From NCBI RefSeq assembly GCF_900167395.1, contig NZ_FUWK01000057.1:1-12889 (forward strand): a DNA stretch of 12,889 nucleotides, in the 5' to 3' direction. Origin of the DNA: Nitrosomonas europaea (GTDB taxonomy: Bacteria; Pseudomonadota; Gammaproteobacteria; Burkholderiales; Nitrosomonadaceae). The notes beneath the pieces were generated by a model. The model was not told the DNA's origin. It searched no databases and saw only the letters and a list, made by a program, of their open reading frames with translations. Shown in pieces: positions 1 to 12,508 of this stretch. The position numbers were made by a program, and so were the translations under genes. The number at the start of each line of letters is the position of its first letter. The first letter of the stretch is position 1.

Positions 1-8
1 GCCTAATC

Positions 9-40
9 GGGTAGCTGGGAGCTTTTAACTCCCAGCCCCC
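9..40 (-). ncRNA. Group II intron domain VI with a bulged branch-point adenosine
   Basis: The minus strand reads GGG(G)-GCUGGGAG-UUAAAAG-CUCCCAGC-UA-CCC. A perfect 8-bp helix (36..29 with 21..14) is extended by GGG/CCC. An unpaired UA sits on the 3' strand. The A (position 12) is the 7th nucleotide from the proposed 3' splice site (position 6), the canonical branch-point spacing. Confidence 0.55.
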
Positions 41-43
41 ACA

Positions 44-73
44 CCACCCACCGTGCGGGTCCGCAGTAGGCGG
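44..73 (-). ncRNA. Group II intron domain V (catalytic hairpin)
   Basis: The minus strand reads CCGCCUAC-UGCG-GACC-CGCA-CG-GUGGGUGG. This gives an 8-bp lower helix including G-U pairs, a 2-nt bulge (CG) on the 3' strand, a 4-bp upper helix and a tetraloop. The lower 5' strand carries CGC where AGC usually sits as the catalytic triad, a substitution characteristic of class C introns. The hairpin lies about 35 nt downstream of the RT stop, as expected. Confidence 0.6.
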
Positions 74-106
74 TTCAACGAGCGTGCTCGTGTGACGACG
101 ACGCCT

Positions 107-1420
107 TCAACCCTTGTCCGGCCCGTAGCTCTGTGCTTTGCACCACAGGTCTTTGATGCTGAGCAGTCCCTGTGCCCTGAGCCAGTCGTTGGACATGGCC
201 TGTTGGGTCACCGGAGTTCTGGCCATGCGCCAATAGCTCAGGCTGCTCACGCCGTGTTGGATGGCAGCCTTCAGCGGTATGCCCAAGTCCAGCAGGTGCC
301 GGATCTTAGTGCGCGCCCAGCGCCACTGTTTCCAGTAGCACATACGCACCCGACGTCGGATCCATTCGTCCAGTTCCGGGATCGGCCGGTAGTACTGGCT
401 GATCCCGTAGTACCCGAACCATCCCCGCAGATACTGACCGAGCTTTTCCAGCCGGTACTCCATGCTGACGCCCCAACTTCTGCCGGTGAGTTGCCGCACC
501 CGATGCTTGAAATTCGCCAGGGATTTCTCTGTCCAGCGGATCTTCTTGCCCACAAGAGTGAAGCCTAGAAAGCTGCATTCACTCATCGGTGCGACTTGGC
601 TCTTGGCCAGGTTCACGGTGAGCTTGAGGGTGGATTGCAGGAAGTACGTGAGGCTTTGCATCACCCGCTCGGCCGCGCGTCGGGACTTGACCAGGATGAT
701 CACATCGTCGGCGTAGCGGGCGAAGCGGTGTCCGCGGCGTTCCAGTTCGAGATCGAACTGGTGCAGCAGGACGTTGGCCAACAGCGGCGAGAGCGGCCCG
801 CCTTGCGGCGTGCCCACCTCGCTGGGTTGGGGGTGCTCCCCGACCAGCACCCCGGCGCGCAGGTAGCGCCCGATCAGGGCCAGCAGTCGCTTGTCGGCGA
901 TGCTTCGACTCAGCAGGCTCATCAACAGGTCATGGTTGACGTTGTCGAAGAACCTGGCCAAGTCCAGATCTACCGCCCAACGGTAGCCGGCCTTCACGTG
1001 CGCCTGCACCTGGCGGATCGCCTGGTGTGCATTGCGGCCCGGTCGGAAGCCGAAGCTCGATGCCGAAAAGCCCGGATCGAAGATCGGTATGAGCACCTGG
1101 GCGATGGCCTGCTGGATGACCCGGTCCGTGACGGTCGGGATGCCCAGTTGCCGTTGGCCGCCATCGGGCTTGGGGATATCCACCCGTCGCACCGGTTGCG
1201 GCCGATATCGCCCGGCCTCGATCTGCTCGCGCGTGGCTGGCCAGTGTGCGCGGGCGTGTTCGGGCCATTCCGCCGTGGTCACGCCGTCGATACCCGGCGC
1301 CCCCCTATTGGATTTGACCCTGCGCCACGCCCGCGCCAGGTTGTCTCTGGCCAGCACGGCCTCGAGCAGGTCTTGGCCGTCTTGGTTATGGTCGTCGTCT
1401 TGGTTCAAGGCTCGGTGCAT
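107..1420 (-). CDS. Group II intron-encoded reverse transcriptase/maturase (RT plus X/thumb domains, no endonuclease domain)
   Basis: 437-aa ORF with diagnostic motifs. These are RT0/1 (LLEAVLARDNLARAWRRVKSNRGAPGIDG; RRVDIPKPDGGQRQLGIPTVTDRVIQQA), RT4 (GTPQGGPLSPLLANVLL), the RT5 catalytic YADD (FARYADDVIILV) and a maturase X-domain signature (LGQYLRGWFGYYG). The short C-terminus has no HNH/En domain, as in class C introns. It has an ATG start with an in-frame stop 11 codons upstream. Confidence 0.95.
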   Translation of the reverse strand: MHRALNQDDDHNQDGQDLLEAVLARDNLARAWRRVKSNRGAPGIDGVTTAEWPEHARAHWPATREQIEAGRYRPQPVRRVDIPKPDGGQRQLGIPTVTDRVIQQAIAQVLIPIFDPGFSASSFGFRPGRNAHQAIRQVQAHVKAGYRWAVDLDLARFFDNVNHDLLMSLLSRSIADKRLLALIGRYLRAGVLVGEHPQPSEVGTPQGGPLSPLLANVLLHQFDLELERRGHRFARYADDVIILVKSRRAAERVMQSLTYFLQSTLKLTVNLAKSQVAPMSECSFLGFTLVGKKIRWTEKSLANFKHRVRQLTGRSWGVSMEYRLEKLGQYLRGWFGYYGISQYYRPIPELDEWIRRRVRMCYWKQWRWARTKIRHLLDLGIPLKAAIQHGVSSLSYWRMARTPVTQQAMSNDWLRAQGLLSIKDLWCKAQSYGPDKG

Positions 1421-2012
1421 GCCGACCGCCGCCGTGCCTGGCCCATGCGGGCTTCATCGGTTTGGTCGAGTTCGGTCACGTCTGCTCCTTAGTATCTCGT
1501 TGTTCAGCCCTTCGGCAGCCCGACACCTGGCTGCCTACTATGGCTTCTGCTGACTTCTGCACCGTCACGCCCACCGTTGCCAGTGGACGCGCTGCCCGTC
1601 TGATCGTGCGTCGCTGCCGGTTTCTTCGCTCGTGGCGGGCAGCTCGCCACGGCTCCTGGTCCTTGGTTGCCCGGTGGGACCGGCCGGGTCATCGTCACGA
1701 TCAGGCTGGCCGCCGTCAGCACAGACCTCCCCAGGTAAGAACGCGAACTGTCGGTGCACAAGCGCCGCATTTACCGTGGCCGGCGTACCGTTGGGCTTCG
1801 CTGTCATGTGCCAGCTCGCCTCGCCTGCCTCGGCCTTCTATGCGGTTTCTGTCCGTCGCCTCGCACCTCTTGCACTCCGGCTTCCTCCAGACAATCCCTC
1901 ACGGGCTTGCCCTTGCCTTCGGCTCGTGGTTATACTCGGTTCACAATGAATCCAAGTCGGTACTCCCACAGGGGACTTGCACCCCATAAGTTCGCGCCCA
2001 TGCTGGGCGCAC

Positions 2013-2118
2013 ACAAGTCGCTCAAGGTCGCGCCATAAATGGCGCTGGACAGCCACAACCGGCGCATGCTTCGCATTTTATGCGCCGCTTGTGTCTGCCC
2101 CTTAGCTCGGCGTTAGTT
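2013..2118 (+). other. Integron attC recombination site, split by the intron (first 5 nt are at 1..5); probably the terminal attC of a cassette array
   Basis: Joining 1..5 to 2013..2118 gives GCCTAAC...GTTAGTT. GCCTAAC is an exact RYYYAAC inverse core (R''). GTTAG.. at 2112 is the GTTRRRY-type core (R'), and CTAAC/GTTAG pair. An L-box-like pairing, GCT(C)AAGG (2020..2027) with CCTTAGC (2100..2106), leaves one extrahelical base: C2023, which is G on the minus strand. Two internal hairpins (2030..2045 and 2060..2087) form the variable central part. The total of about 111 nt is within the attC size range. The GC-rich tract ends here. Confidence 0.55.
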
Positions 2119-2160
2119 CTTCTCAAAATACATCGCTAGAACCAATACTCCACTATTTAA

Positions 2161-3528
2161 TTACTCTCCCTGCGAGTTATTTCTCACTGATCCAGCAAAG
2201 TCAATTCGCCCTACTTTCCATACCAGCACCAGTACCGGCACACCCAATAATGCAGTGCCAGTAAAGAATGTGGCGTAGCCGTAAGCATCAACAAATTCTC
2301 CACTGAAACCGGCGATAAATTTTGGCAGCAGCAGCATGATGGAGCTGAACAACGCATACTGCGTGGCGGAATAAGCAGCGTGCGTCAATCCTGAAAGGTA
2401 GGCAACAAAGGCAGAGGAGGCAATACCTGCTGCCAGGTTATCGGCTGAAATGGTGAAGACCAGCCCGCCGACATCATGCCCTCTGCCCGCCAGCCATACA
2501 AACAGCAGATTGGTGGCGGCTGATAATACCGCTCCCAGAAACAAGGTACGGATAACGCCGATGCGGGCAACCAGCACACCGCCCATGGCTGCGCCCAATA
2601 TGGTCATGATCACACCATACACTTTGGAGATGGTGGCTACTTCATCTTTGGTATAGCCCATGTCCACATAAAACGGATTGCTCATGATGCCCATGACGAC
2701 GTCTGAAATCCGGTATATGGCAATCAATGCCAGAATCAATAGTGCGTGATAACCGTAGCGCATGATGAAATCACGAAACGGCGCAATCACTGCACTATCC
2801 AGCCAGGCAAGCAACCGGGCTGATGCTGTCGCTCCTCGTGATCCACTGTTAACCGTCAATTGTGCAACGGGTACCTCCGGTTCACGAATTATCAACGTAG
2901 TCATCATCCCGATCAGCATACAGCTCGCCATGATGGTATAGGCTACCTGCCAGGAAGCAGCGCTGTATTCACCAGGTGATGCATCCAGTGCAGCGGCAAT
3001 CCACAATACCCCTGCCGAAGCCAGAATCATCGCCAACCGGTAGCCTGCCTGATAGGTTGCGGCCATCGCGCCCTGCAGTCGTAACGCAACCGCTTCGATC
3101 CGGTAAGCATCCAGTGCGATATCCTGAGTAGCGGAAGCAAATGCCACGATGATTGCGCACACTGTCATGCGCACCAGATCTTCCGCCGGATCAGTACGGG
3201 CCATACCAATCAATGCCATGCTAATGGCCAGTTGTGACAGCAATAACCAGGCACGGCGGCGCCCCAGCCAACGAGTCAGCAGTGGCAATGGCATCCGATC
3301 AACCAATGGCGCCCATGCCCATTTGAAACCGTAGGCAAGCCCCACCCAGCTCAGATGGCCAATGGTGGCACGGTCGATACCCGCTTCACGCAACCAGAAC
3401 GACAATGTGCCGAGTATCAGCAGCATGGGCAGACCGGCAGAAAACCCCAGCAGCAGCATGCCCAGCACTCTCGGATGAGTATAGATACGCAGTGCATGCA
3501 GCCAGCCGACGCATGCGCCTGGTTTCAT
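2161..3528 (-). CDS. ampG: AmpG-family MFS muropeptide (anhydromuropeptide) permease
   Basis: 455-aa polytopic membrane protein. The N-terminus LGMLLLGFSAGLPMLLILGTLSFWLREAGIDRATIG...FKWAWAPLVDRMPLP matches the conserved AmpG signature region. Its ATG overlaps the xthA stop codon (ATGA). Confidence 0.85.
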   Translation of the reverse strand: MKPGACVGWLHALRIYTHPRVLGMLLLGFSAGLPMLLILGTLSFWLREAGIDRATIGHLSWVGLAYGFKWAWAPLVDRMPLPLLTRWLGRRRAWLLLSQLAISMALIGMARTDPAEDLVRMTVCAIIVAFASATQDIALDAYRIEAVALRLQGAMAATYQAGYRLAMILASAGVLWIAAALDASPGEYSAASWQVAYTIMASCMLIGMMTTLIIREPEVPVAQLTVNSGSRGATASARLLAWLDSAVIAPFRDFIMRYGYHALLILALIAIYRISDVVMGIMSNPFYVDMGYTKDEVATISKVYGVIMTILGAAMGGVLVARIGVIRTLFLGAVLSAATNLLFVWLAGRGHDVGGLVFTISADNLAAGIASSAFVAYLSGLTHAAYSATQYALFSSIMLLLPKFIAGFSGEFVDAYGYATFFTGTALLGVPVLVLVWKVGRIDFAGSVRNNSQGE

Positions 3529-8078: not shown

Positions 8079-10484
8079 TTATCTTTTCTCTTTCGCTCGT
8101 GCCAGTGCAAGGGCCAGCGCACCGGCAGGTTCAGATTTCCCTGTTCTGGACGCAGTCTGTAGTGAACGGGAACCTCGCCGGGATTGTCGGTCATCCGGCC
8201 TGGCTTTTCGTGTTTCCGGCTGGCTGATTGTTTCAGGAATATCGTCGATTCGCATAGTCAGGCTGATACGTTGGCGTACCGCATCCACCGTCAGTACCCT
8301 GACCTTGACGACTTGCCCCGGTTTGACGATCTGATGGGGGTCTTTGATGAATTTGTTCGCTAGCGCAGAAACATGCACCAGACCATCCTGATGCACGCCA
8401 ATATCGATAAATGCACCGAAAGCGGCTACATTGGTCACGACACCTTCGAGAATCATCCCGGGTTGTAAATCGGTGATTGATTCAATCCCTTCCTGAAAAA
8501 CGGCTGTTTTGAATTCCGGACGCGGATCACGGCCGGGTTTTTCCAGCTCGGTCAGGATATCGCGCACGGTTGGCAAACCAAAGGTTTCATCGGTAAATTC
8601 TTCGGCAGAAAGCCCTTTGAGTGTGCCCGGCTGGCCCATCACCTGCCCGATTCCCTTCTTCAGGCGCGCCAGGATACGTTCGACCACCGGATAGGCTTCC
8701 GGGTGAACAGCGGAACGATCCAGTGGATTATCACCATCGTTGATGCGCAGGAAACCTGCAGCCTGTTCGAATGTTTTTTCCCCCACACGCGGCACCTTGA
8801 GTAGCGTTTGCCGGTTTGAAAACGGGCCATGGGCATCACGATAGCTGACGATGTTCTGCGCAAGTACACGATTGAGACCGGAAACCTGAGCCAGCAGCGG
8901 AGCAGATGCGGTATTGACATCCACACCGACCGCATTGACGCAATCTTCCACCGTAGCATCGAGTGATCGCGCCAGAATACGCTGATTCACATCGTGCTGA
9001 TACTGGCCGACGCCAATCGATTTGGGTTCGATCTTGACCAGTTCTGCCAGGGGATCCTGCAAGCGTCTGGCAATGGAAACAGCACCGCGCAGGCTCACAT
9101 CCAGATCGGAAAATTCTGCTGCAGCCAGTGCGGACGCTGAATAAACCGAGGCGCCTGCCTCGCTGACAACAATTTTGGTCAGCTTCGATTCGGGGGACTG
9201 TTCCGCAACCAGCCTGACAACTTCGGTAGCCAGTTTGTCGGTTTCCCGGCTTGCTGTCCCGTTGCCAATCGAAATCAGTTCAACGCCATGCCGGTGTACC
9301 AGTTGCACGAGGGTTGCCAGCGAACCCTGCCAGTCATTCCGTGGCTGATGCGGATAAATCGTCACGGTTTCCAGCAATTTCCCGGTAGCATCGACCACAG
9401 CCACTTTGCAGCCGGTACGGTAACCCGGATCGAGCCCGAGCACGGCCTTGGGGCCTGCCGGAGCCGCCAGCAGCAATTCACGCAAGTTCCGGCTGAAAAT
9501 CCTGATCGCCTCTGTTTCTGCCGCTTCACGCACCTGCAACAACAGTTCGGTAGTGAGATGCAGATGTACTTTGACACGCCAGGCCCACTGGCAAACATCC
9601 CCAAGCCATTTATCCGCTTTCCGATCACGGTTTTCGATCCCGAAATGTGTTGCAATCATGGCGATGCAGGGATGTGGAATGCTCTCCCGGGCTGTTTCGT
9701 CCAGATCCAGATCGATTCTGAGCACGCCCAGCGCACGACCGCGAAACAATGCCAGTGCACGGTGCGATGGAATCAACCGTACCGGTTCGGTATAAGCGTA
9801 ATAGTCACGGAATTTTTCTTCCTCTGCCTTTTCCTGACCGGCAACGACTGTCGAAGTCACCACCCCCTCCTGCCAGAGCTTGCTACGCAGTACAACGAGC
9901 AAATCCGCTGTCTCCGCAAAGCGTTCAGCCAGAATATCGCGCGCACCTTCAAGTGCTGTTTTCGTATCGGGAACATTGATCGCTTCCACCCCCTCAGCAG
10001 CCGGCACCACCTTGATATATTTTGCGGCTTCCTGCTCAGGATCGAGTGTCGGATCTGCCAGAAGCGTATCCGCTAGCGGCTCCAGTCCGGCTTCACGTGC
10101 GATTTGTGCCCGGGTGCGGCGCTTCGGCCTGTAAGGCAAATAAATATCTTCCAGAAGCTGCCTGGTAGCAGCCTGATCGATGGCATGACGCAGTTCATCG
10201 GTGAGCTTGCCCTGCTCCTCGATCGAAGCCAGGATAACTTGTCGTCGTGCTTCCAGCTCACGCAGATAAGCCAGCCGCTCTTCCAGCAAGCGCAGTTGTG
10301 TGTCGTCCAGGTTACCGGTCGCCTCTTTGCGATATCGCGCAATAAAGGGTACGGTTGCCCCCTCATCCAGCAGCATTACCGCTGCGCTGATCTGCCGCGG
10401 TGCGACATCAAGTTCTTCGGCGATGGTGTTGATGATTTTTTTCTGCGTTGGCTCTGAAACAGCAGATGGGGCTGTAGAAGTCAT
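8079..10484 (-). CDS. tex: Tex transcription accessory protein (S1 RNA-binding domain protein)
   Basis: [44 protein letters not shown] is the conserved Tex N-terminus. A YqgF/RuvC-like region and HhH region follow, then a C-terminal S1 domain ([31 protein letters not shown]) and a basic tail. I chose the ATG at 10484 (MTSTAPS...). The track start at 10541 is a TTG that adds a non-homologous FLFRFLFF extension. Confidence 0.9.
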
Positions 10485-10830
10485 GAAGTTTGTGAAAAAG
10501 AGAAATCGAAAGAGAAAATCGAGAGCAAAACCGGATATCAATGAGAAAAATCCTGAGATTTCTTACGCCTCAGCCAATCTGGCGTAGTTGTGCTCAGATC
10601 TTCAGATGAATATACCGCCATAAATGAATCGCAATATATCGTGTCTACCTGCAAATTTCATCACTCGGGCAAAGGCGCATATTCTAATTAATATATTATC
10701 CGAAAGGCAGGAAAGTAAGCCGGTAATCCGGCATTTCCCTGCACCCGCCGTAAATATAAAAACAGGTATTTCCGCAGCCTGTCGATGGAGGAAACAACCT
10801 GACAGCCATAATCGACAAAGTCTTATCAGA

Positions 10831-11145
10831 TCAGGATGACAGTTTCATCAAGACCAGACCACTGATGATCAGGGCGGCTGCCAGAAGCCGCAAGGGAGTC
10901 ACTGATTCTCCCAACACAAAGATGCCTACCATAAATGCGCCTATTGCTCCAATCCCGGTCCAGATCGTATAGGCTGTGCCGAGCGGAAGTATTTTCATCG
11001 AGAGTGAAAGCAGCACAAAACTGGCAATTACACCCGCAATGGTAATGATGGAATAGACTGGGTTGGTAAAGCCATTCGAGAGTTTCATCGTGAAAGCCCA
11101 GCCCACTTCAAGTAAGCCCGCAAAAATCAGCATCATCCAAGCCAT
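10831..11145 (-). CDS. sugE: SMR-family guanidinium exporter (SugE/Gdx)
   Basis: MAWMMLIFAGLLEVGWAF...LPLGTAYTIWTGIGAIGAFMVGIFVLGES...LKLSS is near-collinear with E. coli SugE. The protein is 104 aa with 4 TMS. GGAG lies 5 nt upstream of the ATG at 11145. The longer track ORF (to 11214) reads through the riboswitch leader. Confidence 0.88.
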   Translation of the reverse strand: MAWMMLIFAGLLEVGWAFTMKLSNGFTNPVYSIITIAGVIASFVLLSLSMKILPLGTAYTIWTGIGAIGAFMVGIFVLGESVTPLRLLAAALIISGLVLMKLSS

Positions 11146-11165
11146 CTCATCTCCATTGAAAGATA

Positions 11166-11212
11166 CCAGGTCGTCCCGGATAGTAGATTGTCCCGAAGAT
11201 GAGGTCGTCCTC
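11166..11212 (-). promoter_or_regulatory. Guanidine-II (mini-ykkC) riboswitch in the sugE/gdx leader
   Basis: The minus strand reads UGAGG-ACGA-CCUCA (hairpin 1; core 11212..11201), then a roughly 20-nt linker, then CCGGG-ACGA-CCUGG (hairpin 2; 11179..11166). This is two short GC-closed hairpins, each with an ACGR tetraloop, placed about 20 nt upstream of the SD and ATG of an SMR exporter. That is the defining architecture and genomic context of mini-ykkC. Confidence 0.78.
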
Positions 11213-11230
11213 AATCAGGAAATTCGCGTT

Positions 11231-12508
11231 TTATTTGATTTGTCCCTGAATCATCCGCTGTAGCTGTTTCAGGTAAGGATAATAATGAACTTCTATCGAA
11301 TGACGGGGACGCGCAATAAATTGTTGTGCCCGGTTTCTCCCTTCTGATAGCGCCAATTTACGCCAGTTTAGTGGCAGCTGTATTTTGTTTGTTAATAATT
11401 GGCCTATCAACCTGGCCTGTATTTCGGCAAGTGGCCAAATGCAGCCCTGCGGCTGAATCAAGCCGACAAAAAACAAACTGGGATGATCCGGATGAAATAT
11501 TCGCAGGAAAAGTGGAATATGAGCCGCTTCTTCCCAGTCAAGAAAATCCCGATCAAAAAATGGGAAGCTGATTTTATAGCCGGTAGCAGCAATGAGCACA
11601 TCATACTGCGCTGTAGCGTTGTCAGCAAAATATACCGTTTGCCCGGAAACTTTCTGGATACCGGGGCGAGGATGCACTTTGCCATGTCGGATCTTATCGA
11701 ATAACGCTGAGTTGATGGTTGGGTGCGCCCGGGTTGGAGAAAAATCTGGCTCTGGTAATGCGTAATCATGATAACGCCCGATCTGGAGACGAAGGCTGAT
11801 TCTTTGTAGCCCATCCTGTACGCTTTGAGGCAGCCAGTGGAAAGTAGCGGCAAAAGTATCGGTAGGACGACCCATGATAAATTTGGGAATAATGTATTGT
11901 GGCGAACGCAAGCTGATATCTACTCGTGCAGCCACGCGGCTGGCTTCTACCGCGCAATCACACCCTGAGTTACCGGCACCGACTACGAGTATGCGTTTGC
12001 CTTCAAGCCCCTGGTTGGTTTTGTACTCATGCGCATGCAGATACTTTCCCGTGAAGCACTCTTTCCAGTCAGGATGGCGTGGTACGGAGTGATGACCATT
12101 GGCAACAAGCAAGTAGTCAAACTCTGCCTGAGTGCCATCATCCAGATGCAAACACCAGCGTTCTTTTTCAATCTTTTCAGCACGGAGCACCGCTGTATTG
12201 AATCGAATATAGTGATCCAGATGAAAATGCCGTGTGTACGCCTGGAAATACGCGAGTATTTGCTGGTGACTGGGGTAATCGGGATAATCGTCAGGCATCG
12301 GGAAGTCGCTGAACTGTGATAAAGCCTTGCTGGAAATGATATGAGTGGCTTCGCTTACGCTGCTGTGACTTGGAGCTGCTGTATATACCCAGTTGCCACC
12401 GATCTGGTCACTTTTCTCGAAACAGATGATCTCCTTCAACCCTGCATCGAGCAGATTTTTGATGGCAGTGAGACCAGAGCAGCCGCTACCGATGATTGCA
12501 ATCCTCAT
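11231..12508 (-). CDS. Class B flavin-containing monooxygenase (FMO family, FAD/NADPH-dependent)
   Basis: 425 aa with N-terminal FAD GxGxxG (IIGSGCSGL) and the FMO-identifying motif FxGxxxHxxxY (FTGKYLHAHEY). It also has a second NADPH GxGxxG (VVGAGNSGCD) and the ATGY motif (LIAATGYK). Confidence 0.85.
   Translation of the reverse strand: MRIAIIGSGCSGLTAIKNLLDAGLKEIICFEKSDQIGGNWVYTAAPSHSSVSEATHIISSKALSQFSDFPMPDDYPDYPSHQQILAYFQAYTRHFHLDHYIRFNTAVLRAEKIEKERWCLHLDDGTQAEFDYLLVANGHHSVPRHPDWKECFTGKYLHAHEYKTNQGLEGKRILVVGAGNSGCDCAVEASRVAARVDISLRSPQYIIPKFIMGRPTDTFAATFHWLPQSVQDGLQRISLRLQIGRYHDYALPEPDFSPTRAHPTINSALFDKIRHGKVHPRPGIQKVSGQTVYFADNATAQYDVLIAATGYKISFPFFDRDFLDWEEAAHIPLFLRIFHPDHPSLFFVGLIQPQGCIWPLAEIQARLIGQLLTNKIQLPLNWRKLALSEGRNRAQQFIARPRHSIEVHYYPYLKQLQRMIQGQIK

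Follow-up and report, generated by a model that had tools for sequence, protein, structure and literature searches.

We analyzed a stretch of 12,889 nucleotides from Nitrosomonas europaea (contig NZ_FUWK01000057.1; hereafter, the window), the left end of which carries a group II intron on the minus strand, at positions 6-2012. This element is almost certainly N.e.I1, an intact and recently mobile group IIC-attC intron, located in the bottom strand of the terminal attC site of a chromosomal integron. The intron itself is already known: an exact copy was published in 2010 as N.e.I1, and its lineage, its target rule and its promoters have been published likewise. The two attC halves beside the intron, however, probably come from two different attC sites that would have been joined via recombination between intron copies, as suggested by sequence comparison with related arrays.

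The window is 100% identical to Nitrosomonas europaea ATCC 19718 (AL954747.1, from 2,378,142) over the 11,420 nt compared, and to CM135170.1 over its entire length. Leon, Quiroga, Centron & Roy 2010 (NAR 38:8196, PMC3001079) listed the AL954747 intron among the group IIC-attC introns in their Table 3, under the name N.e.I1, with the intron-encoded protein (IEP) NP_842195; it was marked as inserted in an integron, and the 5'-exon gene was given as 'ampG (NA)'. In that study, the IIC-attC clade has 100% bootstrap support, and the N.e.I1 IEP is included in this lineage. Two outward promoters were described, P1out (TTGCCC-18-TATACT, intron positions 77-106), which was active in a chloramphenicol acetyltransferase reporter assay, and P2out (TTGCCA-16-TCTGAT, intron positions 409-435). 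The genome record, the ampG neighbor, the hexamers of both promoters and their intron coordinates are the same in the window, i.e., this is the same object. It should be noted that the original prediction, which was made from the letters of the window alone, had recommended the complete copy as an uncommon find that is worth a look; on this point it was anticipated by the publication (PMC3001079).

In the orientation of the window, the locus consists of intI (transcribed leftwards), attI, one DUF6232 cassette, the R'' box, the intron, the L''-L'-R' part of the attC, and ampG. The insertion point is located between GT and TAGGC of the R'' box. Sequences used for comparison are designated by L numbers; among them are two introns of class 1 integrons, one in the aadA1 attC of the P. 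putida plasmid pVIM (L017) and one in the blaIMP-26 attC of K. pneumoniae (L018). The features of the intron, in window coordinates, are as follows:

6..2012, minus strand: complete group IIC-attC intron N.e.I1, 2,007 nt, 5' GUGCG...AU 3' (Rfam, empty sites, identical second copy, publication)
9..40, minus strand: domain VI hairpin with a bulged branch-point A at 12, 7 nt from the 3' splice site (read directly; 3' end kept in L017 and L018)
45..72, minus strand: domain V, lower helix CGCCUAC/GUGGGUG, CGC triad at 72-70 (read directly)
107..1420, minus strand: IEP, 437 aa, with reverse transcriptase (RT) and maturase (X) domains and no endonuclease domain (Pfam, TIGR04416)
1577..1604, plus strand: P2out, TTGCCA-16-TCTGAT, outward, antisense to the intron (matches published positions 409-435)
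1804..1811, minus strand: candidate exon-binding site 1 (EBS1) loop GCACAUGA (hairpin loop of the RF02001 structure, consensus loop GCaaaacA)
1907..1936, plus strand: P1out, TTGCCC-18-TATACT, outward (matches published positions 77-106)

The 5' boundary of the intron lies at 2013/2012, where the minus strand reads CGACTTGT/GTGCGCCC (in the longer reading, ...GAGCGACTTGT/GTGCGCCCAGC...; slashes mark boundaries, insertion points and cut points). The 3' boundary lies at 6/5, where the minus strand reads CCCGAT/TAGGC, i.e., GCTACCCGAT/TAGGC, with the terminal AU at 7-6. Both ends are fixed by empty sites: natural intron-less alleles, one on an activated-sludge contig (L019) and one in the genome CP157069 (L028), read ..CCTAACAAGTCGC.. 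unbroken, are contiguous across CCTA/ACAAG, and continue into the same ampG flank. The attC introns of class 1 integrons have homologous ends (TTGT/GTACGCCCAGCATGGGC ... GCTACCCGAT/TAG), and intron position 1 must be window position 2012, because the published promoter coordinates fit only then. Thus, the boundaries proposed from the letters alone (6 and 2012, minus strand, GUGCG...AU) agree with the empty sites, with the homologous ends and with the published coordinates.

Within these boundaries, two Rfam models of domains I-IV match (RF02001, 118.7 bits; RF01998, 70.6 bits). In domain V, as read from the sequence, 2 nt bulge out at 53-52 and the upper helix is UGCG/CGCA, with GACC as the loop; the lower helix covaries with that of L017/L018 (CCUAC/GUGGG here vs CCCUG/CAGGG). 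The 3' end of the intron (GGGGGCUG...GCUACCCGAU) is conserved in the same two introns, and base pairing in domains V and VI is maintained relative to them. The open reading frame (ORF) of the IEP is intact, with YADD at residue 236 (1-based), and its product passes the NCBI group II RT/maturase model TIGR04416 at 414 bits; in Pfam, it matches RVT_1 (1.8e-40) and GIIM (1.4e-19), with no further domains. P1out was the sole sigma-70-like site in a promoter scan of window 1-2400. For EBS1, we infer the loop at 1811-1804, in which ACA (1809-1807) would pair with UGU of intron-binding site 1 (IBS1).

The comparison of the IEP with RTs of solved structure gave 462 bits for GsI-IIC and 376 bits for E.r. 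IIC, versus 140 for LtrA (IIA) and 134 for TeI4h (IIB), and its top relatives in PDB are the IIC RTs 6AR1 and 7UIM. By these best solved-structure relatives, the RT belongs to class C, which, along with the absence of an endonuclease domain and the CGC triad readable at 72-70, had been predicted correctly. The insertion rule of IIC-attC introns is TTGT/T, in the bottom strand of R'', opposite to cassette transcription (PMC7923331). Both genomic copies of N.e.I1 are antisense to the cassettes, the integron copy at ACTTGT/TAGGC and a second copy at AATTGT/TAGGC, and the interpretation of TTGT/T as IBS1/IBS3, with antisense insertion into the attC bottom strand, matches the published consensus. 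The nearest plasmid-borne relatives of the RT (56-59% amino acid identity) also lie antisense in attC sites of class 1 integrons.

The second copy (L008 9409-11415; AL954747.1 ~2,285.1-2,287.1 kb) is identical to the window copy at 2007/2007 positions. It is located ~92 kb from the integron, inverted relative to the window copy, and occupies TTGT/TAGGC in an attC of 60 nt; the aadA6/aadA10 attC, found on >5,000 plasmids, has 95.5% identity to this site. This copy closes an integrase-less cassette array (L008 11416-21314).

Toxin-antitoxin and defence genes are abundant in this second array (ThsB-TIR, two BrnT/BrnA pairs, RES-Xre, Fic, PIN-PhD). The array also contains a 64-nt perfect palindrome (L008 14133-14202; GTCTAACAATTAAGG...CCTTAATTGTTAGAC) with attC-like cores, no unpaired spacer and no bulge, which scores 23 and 18 bits on its two strands with the surrogate attC model described below. 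In the genome CP054389.1 (L007 8084-11415), the second intron copy is interrupted by a ~1.3-kb IS3-family insertion sequence, which results in an intron of 3,332 nt, and several further copies of the same insertion sequence flank the array.

The intron splits an attC site, the parts of which are given below:

1..5, plus strand: left attC stub GCCTA, the first 5 nt of the R'' inverse core GCCTAAC (on the minus strand, the 3' exon TAGGC; T5 is IBS3)
2013..2118, plus strand: attC remainder, the 5' exon on the minus strand (fold, family covariation, identity to L019/L028)
2013-2014, plus strand: AC of R''
2016..2013, minus strand: IBS1, TTGT
2015-2019, plus strand: spacer
2020-2027, plus strand: L'' GCTCAAGG, GCT(C)AAGG, with the bulged G2023 on the bottom strand
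2028-2099, plus strand: branched variable region
2100-2106, plus strand: L', CCTTAGC
2107-2111, plus strand: second spacer
2112-2118, plus strand: R', GTTAGTT

When the intron is removed, the flanks join as GCCTA/ACAAGTCG (in full, GCCTA/ACAAGTCGCTCAAGG...CCCCTTAGCTCGGCGTTAGTT; 111 nt), and the R'' of the joined site becomes GCCTAAC, an exact RYYYAAC, with its partner GTTAG at 2112, as had been predicted. Folded as single-stranded DNA, the joined bottom strand reaches -34 kcal/mol (z = -5.85; 0/200 shuffles were as stable). The fold includes the R box CTAAC/GTTAG, a 4x4 unpaired spacer, the L box GCTAAGG/CCTT(G)AGC with a bulged G, and the branched variable region. The bulged G and the insertion point are equally far apart in the 111-nt site and in the aadA-type attC.

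The same element occurs elsewhere without an intron. The activated-sludge contig L019 has the ampG flank of the window and an uninterrupted attC, which matches the joined site at 111/111 positions after the first base, and two contigs of metagenome-assembled genomes (L020 and L021) contain 4 copies each of the same ~111-nt element between short ORFs. A comparison of 10 family sequences, of which 9 are distinct and which derive from three other contigs, showed that both boxes (R and L) and the bulged G either do not vary or covary, the G being invariant in 10/10; covariation comprises one compensatory pair in the L box and several pairs in the variable hairpins. In successive cassettes of L020/L021, the bases after G/TT are complementary to the next R''. 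Both the fold and the family comparison thus agree with the proposed R-box and L-box pairing with a bulged minus-strand G.

For the covariance check, we used a surrogate attC model (R1), which was built from 8 unrelated attC sites, none of this family, and has 13 pairs. The training sites were those of aadA1, blaIMP-26, blaVIM-2 and aac(3)-If (two plasmids), and four from the second N. europaea array; in the alignment, the R and L boxes are paired in 96% of cells and 6 pairs covary, and searches were run with filters off. The covariance-based attC calls of this study rest on this surrogate. A model of the same family was dropped as uninformative, because 96-100% identity makes a match trivial, and a home-made structural scan (AAC...GTT plus fold) was replaced by R1, since its strict version missed sites and its relaxed version was swamped by false positives. 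R1 matches the natural uninterrupted allele at full length in L019 (29.5 bits, E 5.6e-5) and in L028 (29.5 bits, E 1.9e-5), and it recovers, each on its proper strand, all nine natural sites of the family. For the split site of the window, the score is 9.6 bits, and the background in ~62 kb peaks near 10-14 bits. R1 found no other attC in the window or in the 21-kb segment L009 that spans the integron. These results show that the sequence joined without the intron is a canonical attC in form.

The integron that had been predicted to the left of the window is present, although as a single cassette and not as the expected array. The integrase (323 aa; TIGR02249, 490 bits against a cut-off of 265) is divergent from the cassette ORF and 140 nt away from it; the integrase, attI and the cassette are all within 1.5 kb left of the window, with intI and attI at ~0.5 kb. 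The sole cassette is a 123-aa DUF6232 ORF, and its stop codon TAA abuts GCCTAAC just left of position 1. The attI/cassette junction, AAC G/TTAGGCTTA, is exactly complementary to the extended R'' TAAGCCTAAC; GTTAGGCTTA and TAAGCCTAAC pair at 10/10 positions. Upstream of the crossover G/TTAGGC, the attI region (L009 11800-11935) contains two direct repeats TTATACACCTA, 24 nt apart (window-relative -451 to -398), which resemble the integrase-binding direct repeats of attI1. The same integrase is reportedly the subject of a 2003 paper by Leon & Roy, the title of which is said to report IntINeu activity. Just past intI, there is a 95-aa ORF (L009 13021-13308) whose similarity to glutamate racemase is weak and partial (E 4e-9 over ~30 residues); it is probably a gene fragment.

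A sister strain of N. europaea shows a different state of the same locus. In CP157069.1 (2,302,888-2,323,664; L028), the same intI/attI is followed by 13 cassettes without an intron (L028 1169-12267); R1 finds 13 co-oriented matches between intI and ampG, the last of which is the intact 111-nt attC. The cassettes include a glyoxalase, an isochorismatase, DUF924, a HigB/HigA-like pair, one IS3-family insertion, and a ceramidase-like last cassette. ATCC 19718 and CP157069 are identical through intI/attI to G/TTAG, where different cassettes begin at the same attI; the sequences are then unrelated and become identical again from CCTAAC on. The left break of identity is exactly the integrase cut point, and the exchange of cassettes at this point indirectly suggests recombination by an integron integrase. 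The right break is at R'', not at R' as the integrase would give.

The two sides of the intron have different relatives. On the left, the DUF6232 cassette is found in an unrelated metagenome array (L034, 134-593) with 405/405 nt identical up to the insertion point, and in another metagenome array (L035, 954-1420) with one substitution and one single-base indel; in both arrays, it ends in its own intact attC, GCCTAACAAGGCATTCAAGCCGACGCCGCTTCGCGGCGCAGCTTAACTCAGGCGTTAGG, which is aadA-like, with a length of 60 nt, rather than of the 111-nt type. On the right, the L''-R' half of the 111-nt site (hereafter, B-type), together with the ampG flank, recurs base-for-base in CP157069, L019 and several other contigs as the attC of a ceramidase-like cassette. 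The two parental sequences overlap only in the 9 nt CCTA/ACAAG, and the insertion point is inside this overlap. Because the crossover maps to CCTA/ACAAG around the insertion point, we infer homologous recombination between two intron copies located in two attC sites. Hence, the claim that the intron sits inside an attC stands as to the canonical form that is restored upon removal, whereas it was probably not the joined site that the intron originally entered. In the accessible literature, which excluded Leon & Roy 2003 and 2009, we found neither a mixed origin of the attC halves nor the comparison with the CP157069 allele.

The most economical route would be a deletion between direct intron copies in one array, with loss of the cassettes in between; such a deletion would also explain the one-cassette integron. 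Alternatively, an exchange with the surviving inverted copy ~92 kb away may have taken place. The 5' exon of that copy is an aadA-like L''-R' half, three mismatches from the DUF6232 cassette's own attC. Relatives of the 76-aa cassette at its 3' exon have an aadA-like attC in L037 and another type in L038, and they fit both the deletion and the inversion histories.

Two metagenome contigs, L010 (JGI 3300030446; 9302-11500) and L014 (ENA ERZ926323; 5790-8000), have the ampG/attC 5' exon joined to the 3' exon of the other copy (76-aa cassette, TIR...). Since their flanks are 100% identical to ATCC 19718 around a perfect 2-kb repeat, they may represent an inversion between the two intron copies or, equally, joins made during assembly; none of the contigs examined showed the reciprocal junction.

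The DUF6232 cassette is likely to be currently mobile, because identical DNA sits in unrelated arrays, with attC sites on both sides. Its homologues in L023-L027 (77-87% amino acid identity) are not cassettes and gave no native attC. Their DNA homology to the cassette extends only from AGGCTTACAGAG, 2 nt inside the cassette 5' end, to GGCTAAGC, the stop codon plus 2 nt; by these limits, the cassette contains hardly any DNA besides the gene. In L026, complementarity exists already between the ends derived from the gene, GCTTA and TAAGC.

A less probable, but not negligible, explanation is that the intron historically did enter the 111-nt site in its joined form. The DUF6232 cassette would then have arrived at attI with a B-type attC, followed by a single insertion, without any chimera. 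The joined site is indeed canonical and scores as an attC, and in L020 and L021, cassettes of many kinds end in B-family sites, whose likeness begins at YTAAC, so that a break at R'' is not unusual. Conversely, the same DUF6232 cassette DNA has a 60-nt aadA-like attC in two independent arrays, the B-type half and the ampG flank match another cassette's attC base for base at the orthologous locus in CP157069, and an exchange mediated by IntI would break at R' (G/TT) and not at R''. The chimeric origin of the attC halves is weakened by the observation that sites of the same family naturally stop being alike at R'', and RecA recombination between two attC sites of the same family, or a variant of the DUF6232 cassette that owns a B-type attC, is a possible source of the same arrangement.

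Several further observations weigh against the assignment of the intron and of its target. The Rfam model of domains V-VI (RF00029) gave no match in window 1-2200 even at E<=1; for this reason, domains V and VI rest on a by-eye reading and on a few covarying pairs. The candidate EBS1 of N.e.I1 (ACAU) pairs with just 3/4 bases of IBS1; by comparison, L017/L018 have GCACAAGA in this loop and, accordingly, a perfect ACAA:UUGU pairing of 4 bp. Along with the A-rich loop of the Rfam consensus, this agrees with targets that are U-rich or UUGU. In a neighbor-joining tree of six RT sequences (PDB-derived IIC, IIA, class 1 integron), N.e.I1, the class 1 integron introns and GsI-IIC are not separated (56% vs 52.5% identity); because this small tree separates no attC subclade, placement in the IIC-attC lineage is based on the published study and on where the introns are inserted. 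As for the attC, R' (GTTAGTT) matches GTTRRRY at 6/7 positions, a mismatch that is expected because its last bases belong to downstream DNA. Of the canonical extrahelical bases, the bulged G is seen, but T2016, the second one (with the T-N6-G spacing of the aadA1 attC), lies in the 4x4 internal loop of the minimum-free-energy fold. Apart from the two models of domains I-IV, a permissive Rfam scan of window 1-2200 gave nothing; attC sites are not represented by an Rfam family.

The missing match to RF00029 and the three-base EBS1 pairing would also be compatible with a decayed remnant that no longer splices or moves. We consider this very improbable, given the intact 437-aa IEP ORF with YADD, the readable domains V and VI, and the presence of two 100% identical copies at two different attC sites. 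Leon & Roy reportedly observed in 2009 that three IIC-attC introns of environmental origin were mobile in E. coli. More improbable still, and ruled out for practical purposes, is an ordinary class C intron located past the ampG terminator, with the attC likeness of the hairpin being coincidental: the intron is co-oriented with ampG, 148 nt beyond its stop codon, and most IIC introns insert after terminator hairpins, but there is no T-run and no terminator-like site was found on that strand, the hairpin is a member of an attC family that recurs between cassettes and is the last of 13 co-oriented attC sites in CP157069, the left side has an integron integrase and attI at a distance of 0.5 kb, and the second intron copy occupies the same position of an aadA-type attC.

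A mechanism for the N.e.I1 insertion can be proposed from the established knowledge of IIC and IIC-attC introns. The intron ribonucleoprotein would recognize the folded single-stranded bottom strand of the attC, i.e., a bulged stem-loop, in place of IBS2 pairing, with target choice also depending on 3-4 bp of EBS1-IBS1 (UUGU) and on EBS3-IBS3 (U). The intron would then reverse-splice into the single-stranded bottom strand, and the RT would make cDNA from a primer supplied by replication, as expected because the enzyme lacks an endonuclease. The layout suggests that the cassette, whose attC is split by 2 kb, cannot fold its recombination site and is frozen in place. The promoter/terminator scan found no terminator-like site between ampG and the intron on that strand; since the two are co-oriented, read-through from ampG could supply precursor RNA. 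P1out would fire outward, across the attC remainder and antisense into ampG.

If the chimeric origin of the attC halves is true, the locus is a natural example of the step in which sequences are joined by recombination between introns, in the Leon-Roy model of attC acquisition by genes. It would also mean that IIC-attC introns remodel chromosomal arrays, and L010/L014 may record a further exchange of this kind. Introns that recombine with each other would act as portable homology that is able to delete, invert and re-pair cassettes and attC sites, and such re-pairing bears on the open question of cassette assembly. The possible addition to the published work is that newer genomes and metagenomes show the intron bridging two attC halves, with one cassette here and thirteen in the sister strain. 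Otherwise, the analysis mainly confirms that an attC-targeting intron is recognizable from raw sequence.

The chromosome to the right of position 2119 is unremarkable; this part of the window contains ampG, an exonuclease III-like gene, darP, pmbA, an EamA transporter, tex, a small multidrug resistance (SMR) gene and a flavin monooxygenase. The first core gene past the integron is:

2161..3528, minus strand: ampG, an AmpG-family muropeptide transporter of the major facilitator superfamily (TIGR00901, 525.7 bits)

It is convergent with the cassettes and has the same orientation as the intron. Farther along, a guanidine-II (mini-ykkC) riboswitch (11166-11216, minus strand; 36.8 bits) lies directly upstream of the SMR-family gene, which was called as 104 aa (mechanical ORF 10831-11214). 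A guanidine-II riboswitch together with a small multidrug resistance gene is the usual pairing with guanidinium exporters.

Compared with known systems, N.e.I1 shares with the introns of the S.ma.I2/E.c.I7/Kl.pn.I1 type (L017, L018) the insertion at TTGT/T in the R'' bottom strand, antisense to the cassettes, as well as the 5' end GTRCGCCCAGCATGGGC, the 3' end GCTACCCGAT, the RT without an endonuclease domain and the position of P1out in domain I; the layout of L018 (intI, first cassette, intron) is the same as that of the N.e.I1 locus. Unlike these class 1 integron introns, N.e.I1 has only 56-59% RT identity to them, resides on a chromosome, in a sedentary integron, and targets a 111-nt attC with a branched variable region instead of the 60-nt aadA type. 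Its candidate EBS1 is ACAU versus ACAA, and its 5'-exon gene is the convergent core gene ampG, which makes read-through possible. With the terminator-targeting class C introns (B.h.I1, GsI-IIC, E.r. IIC), it has in common the RT class (52.5% identity to GsI-IIC), a short candidate EBS1, the apparent absence of EBS2, the presumed dependence on an upstream stem-loop and the lack of an endonuclease domain. These introns, however, insert after intrinsic terminators with a U-rich IBS1, whereas N.e.I1 is found inside a recombination site, at TTGT/T.

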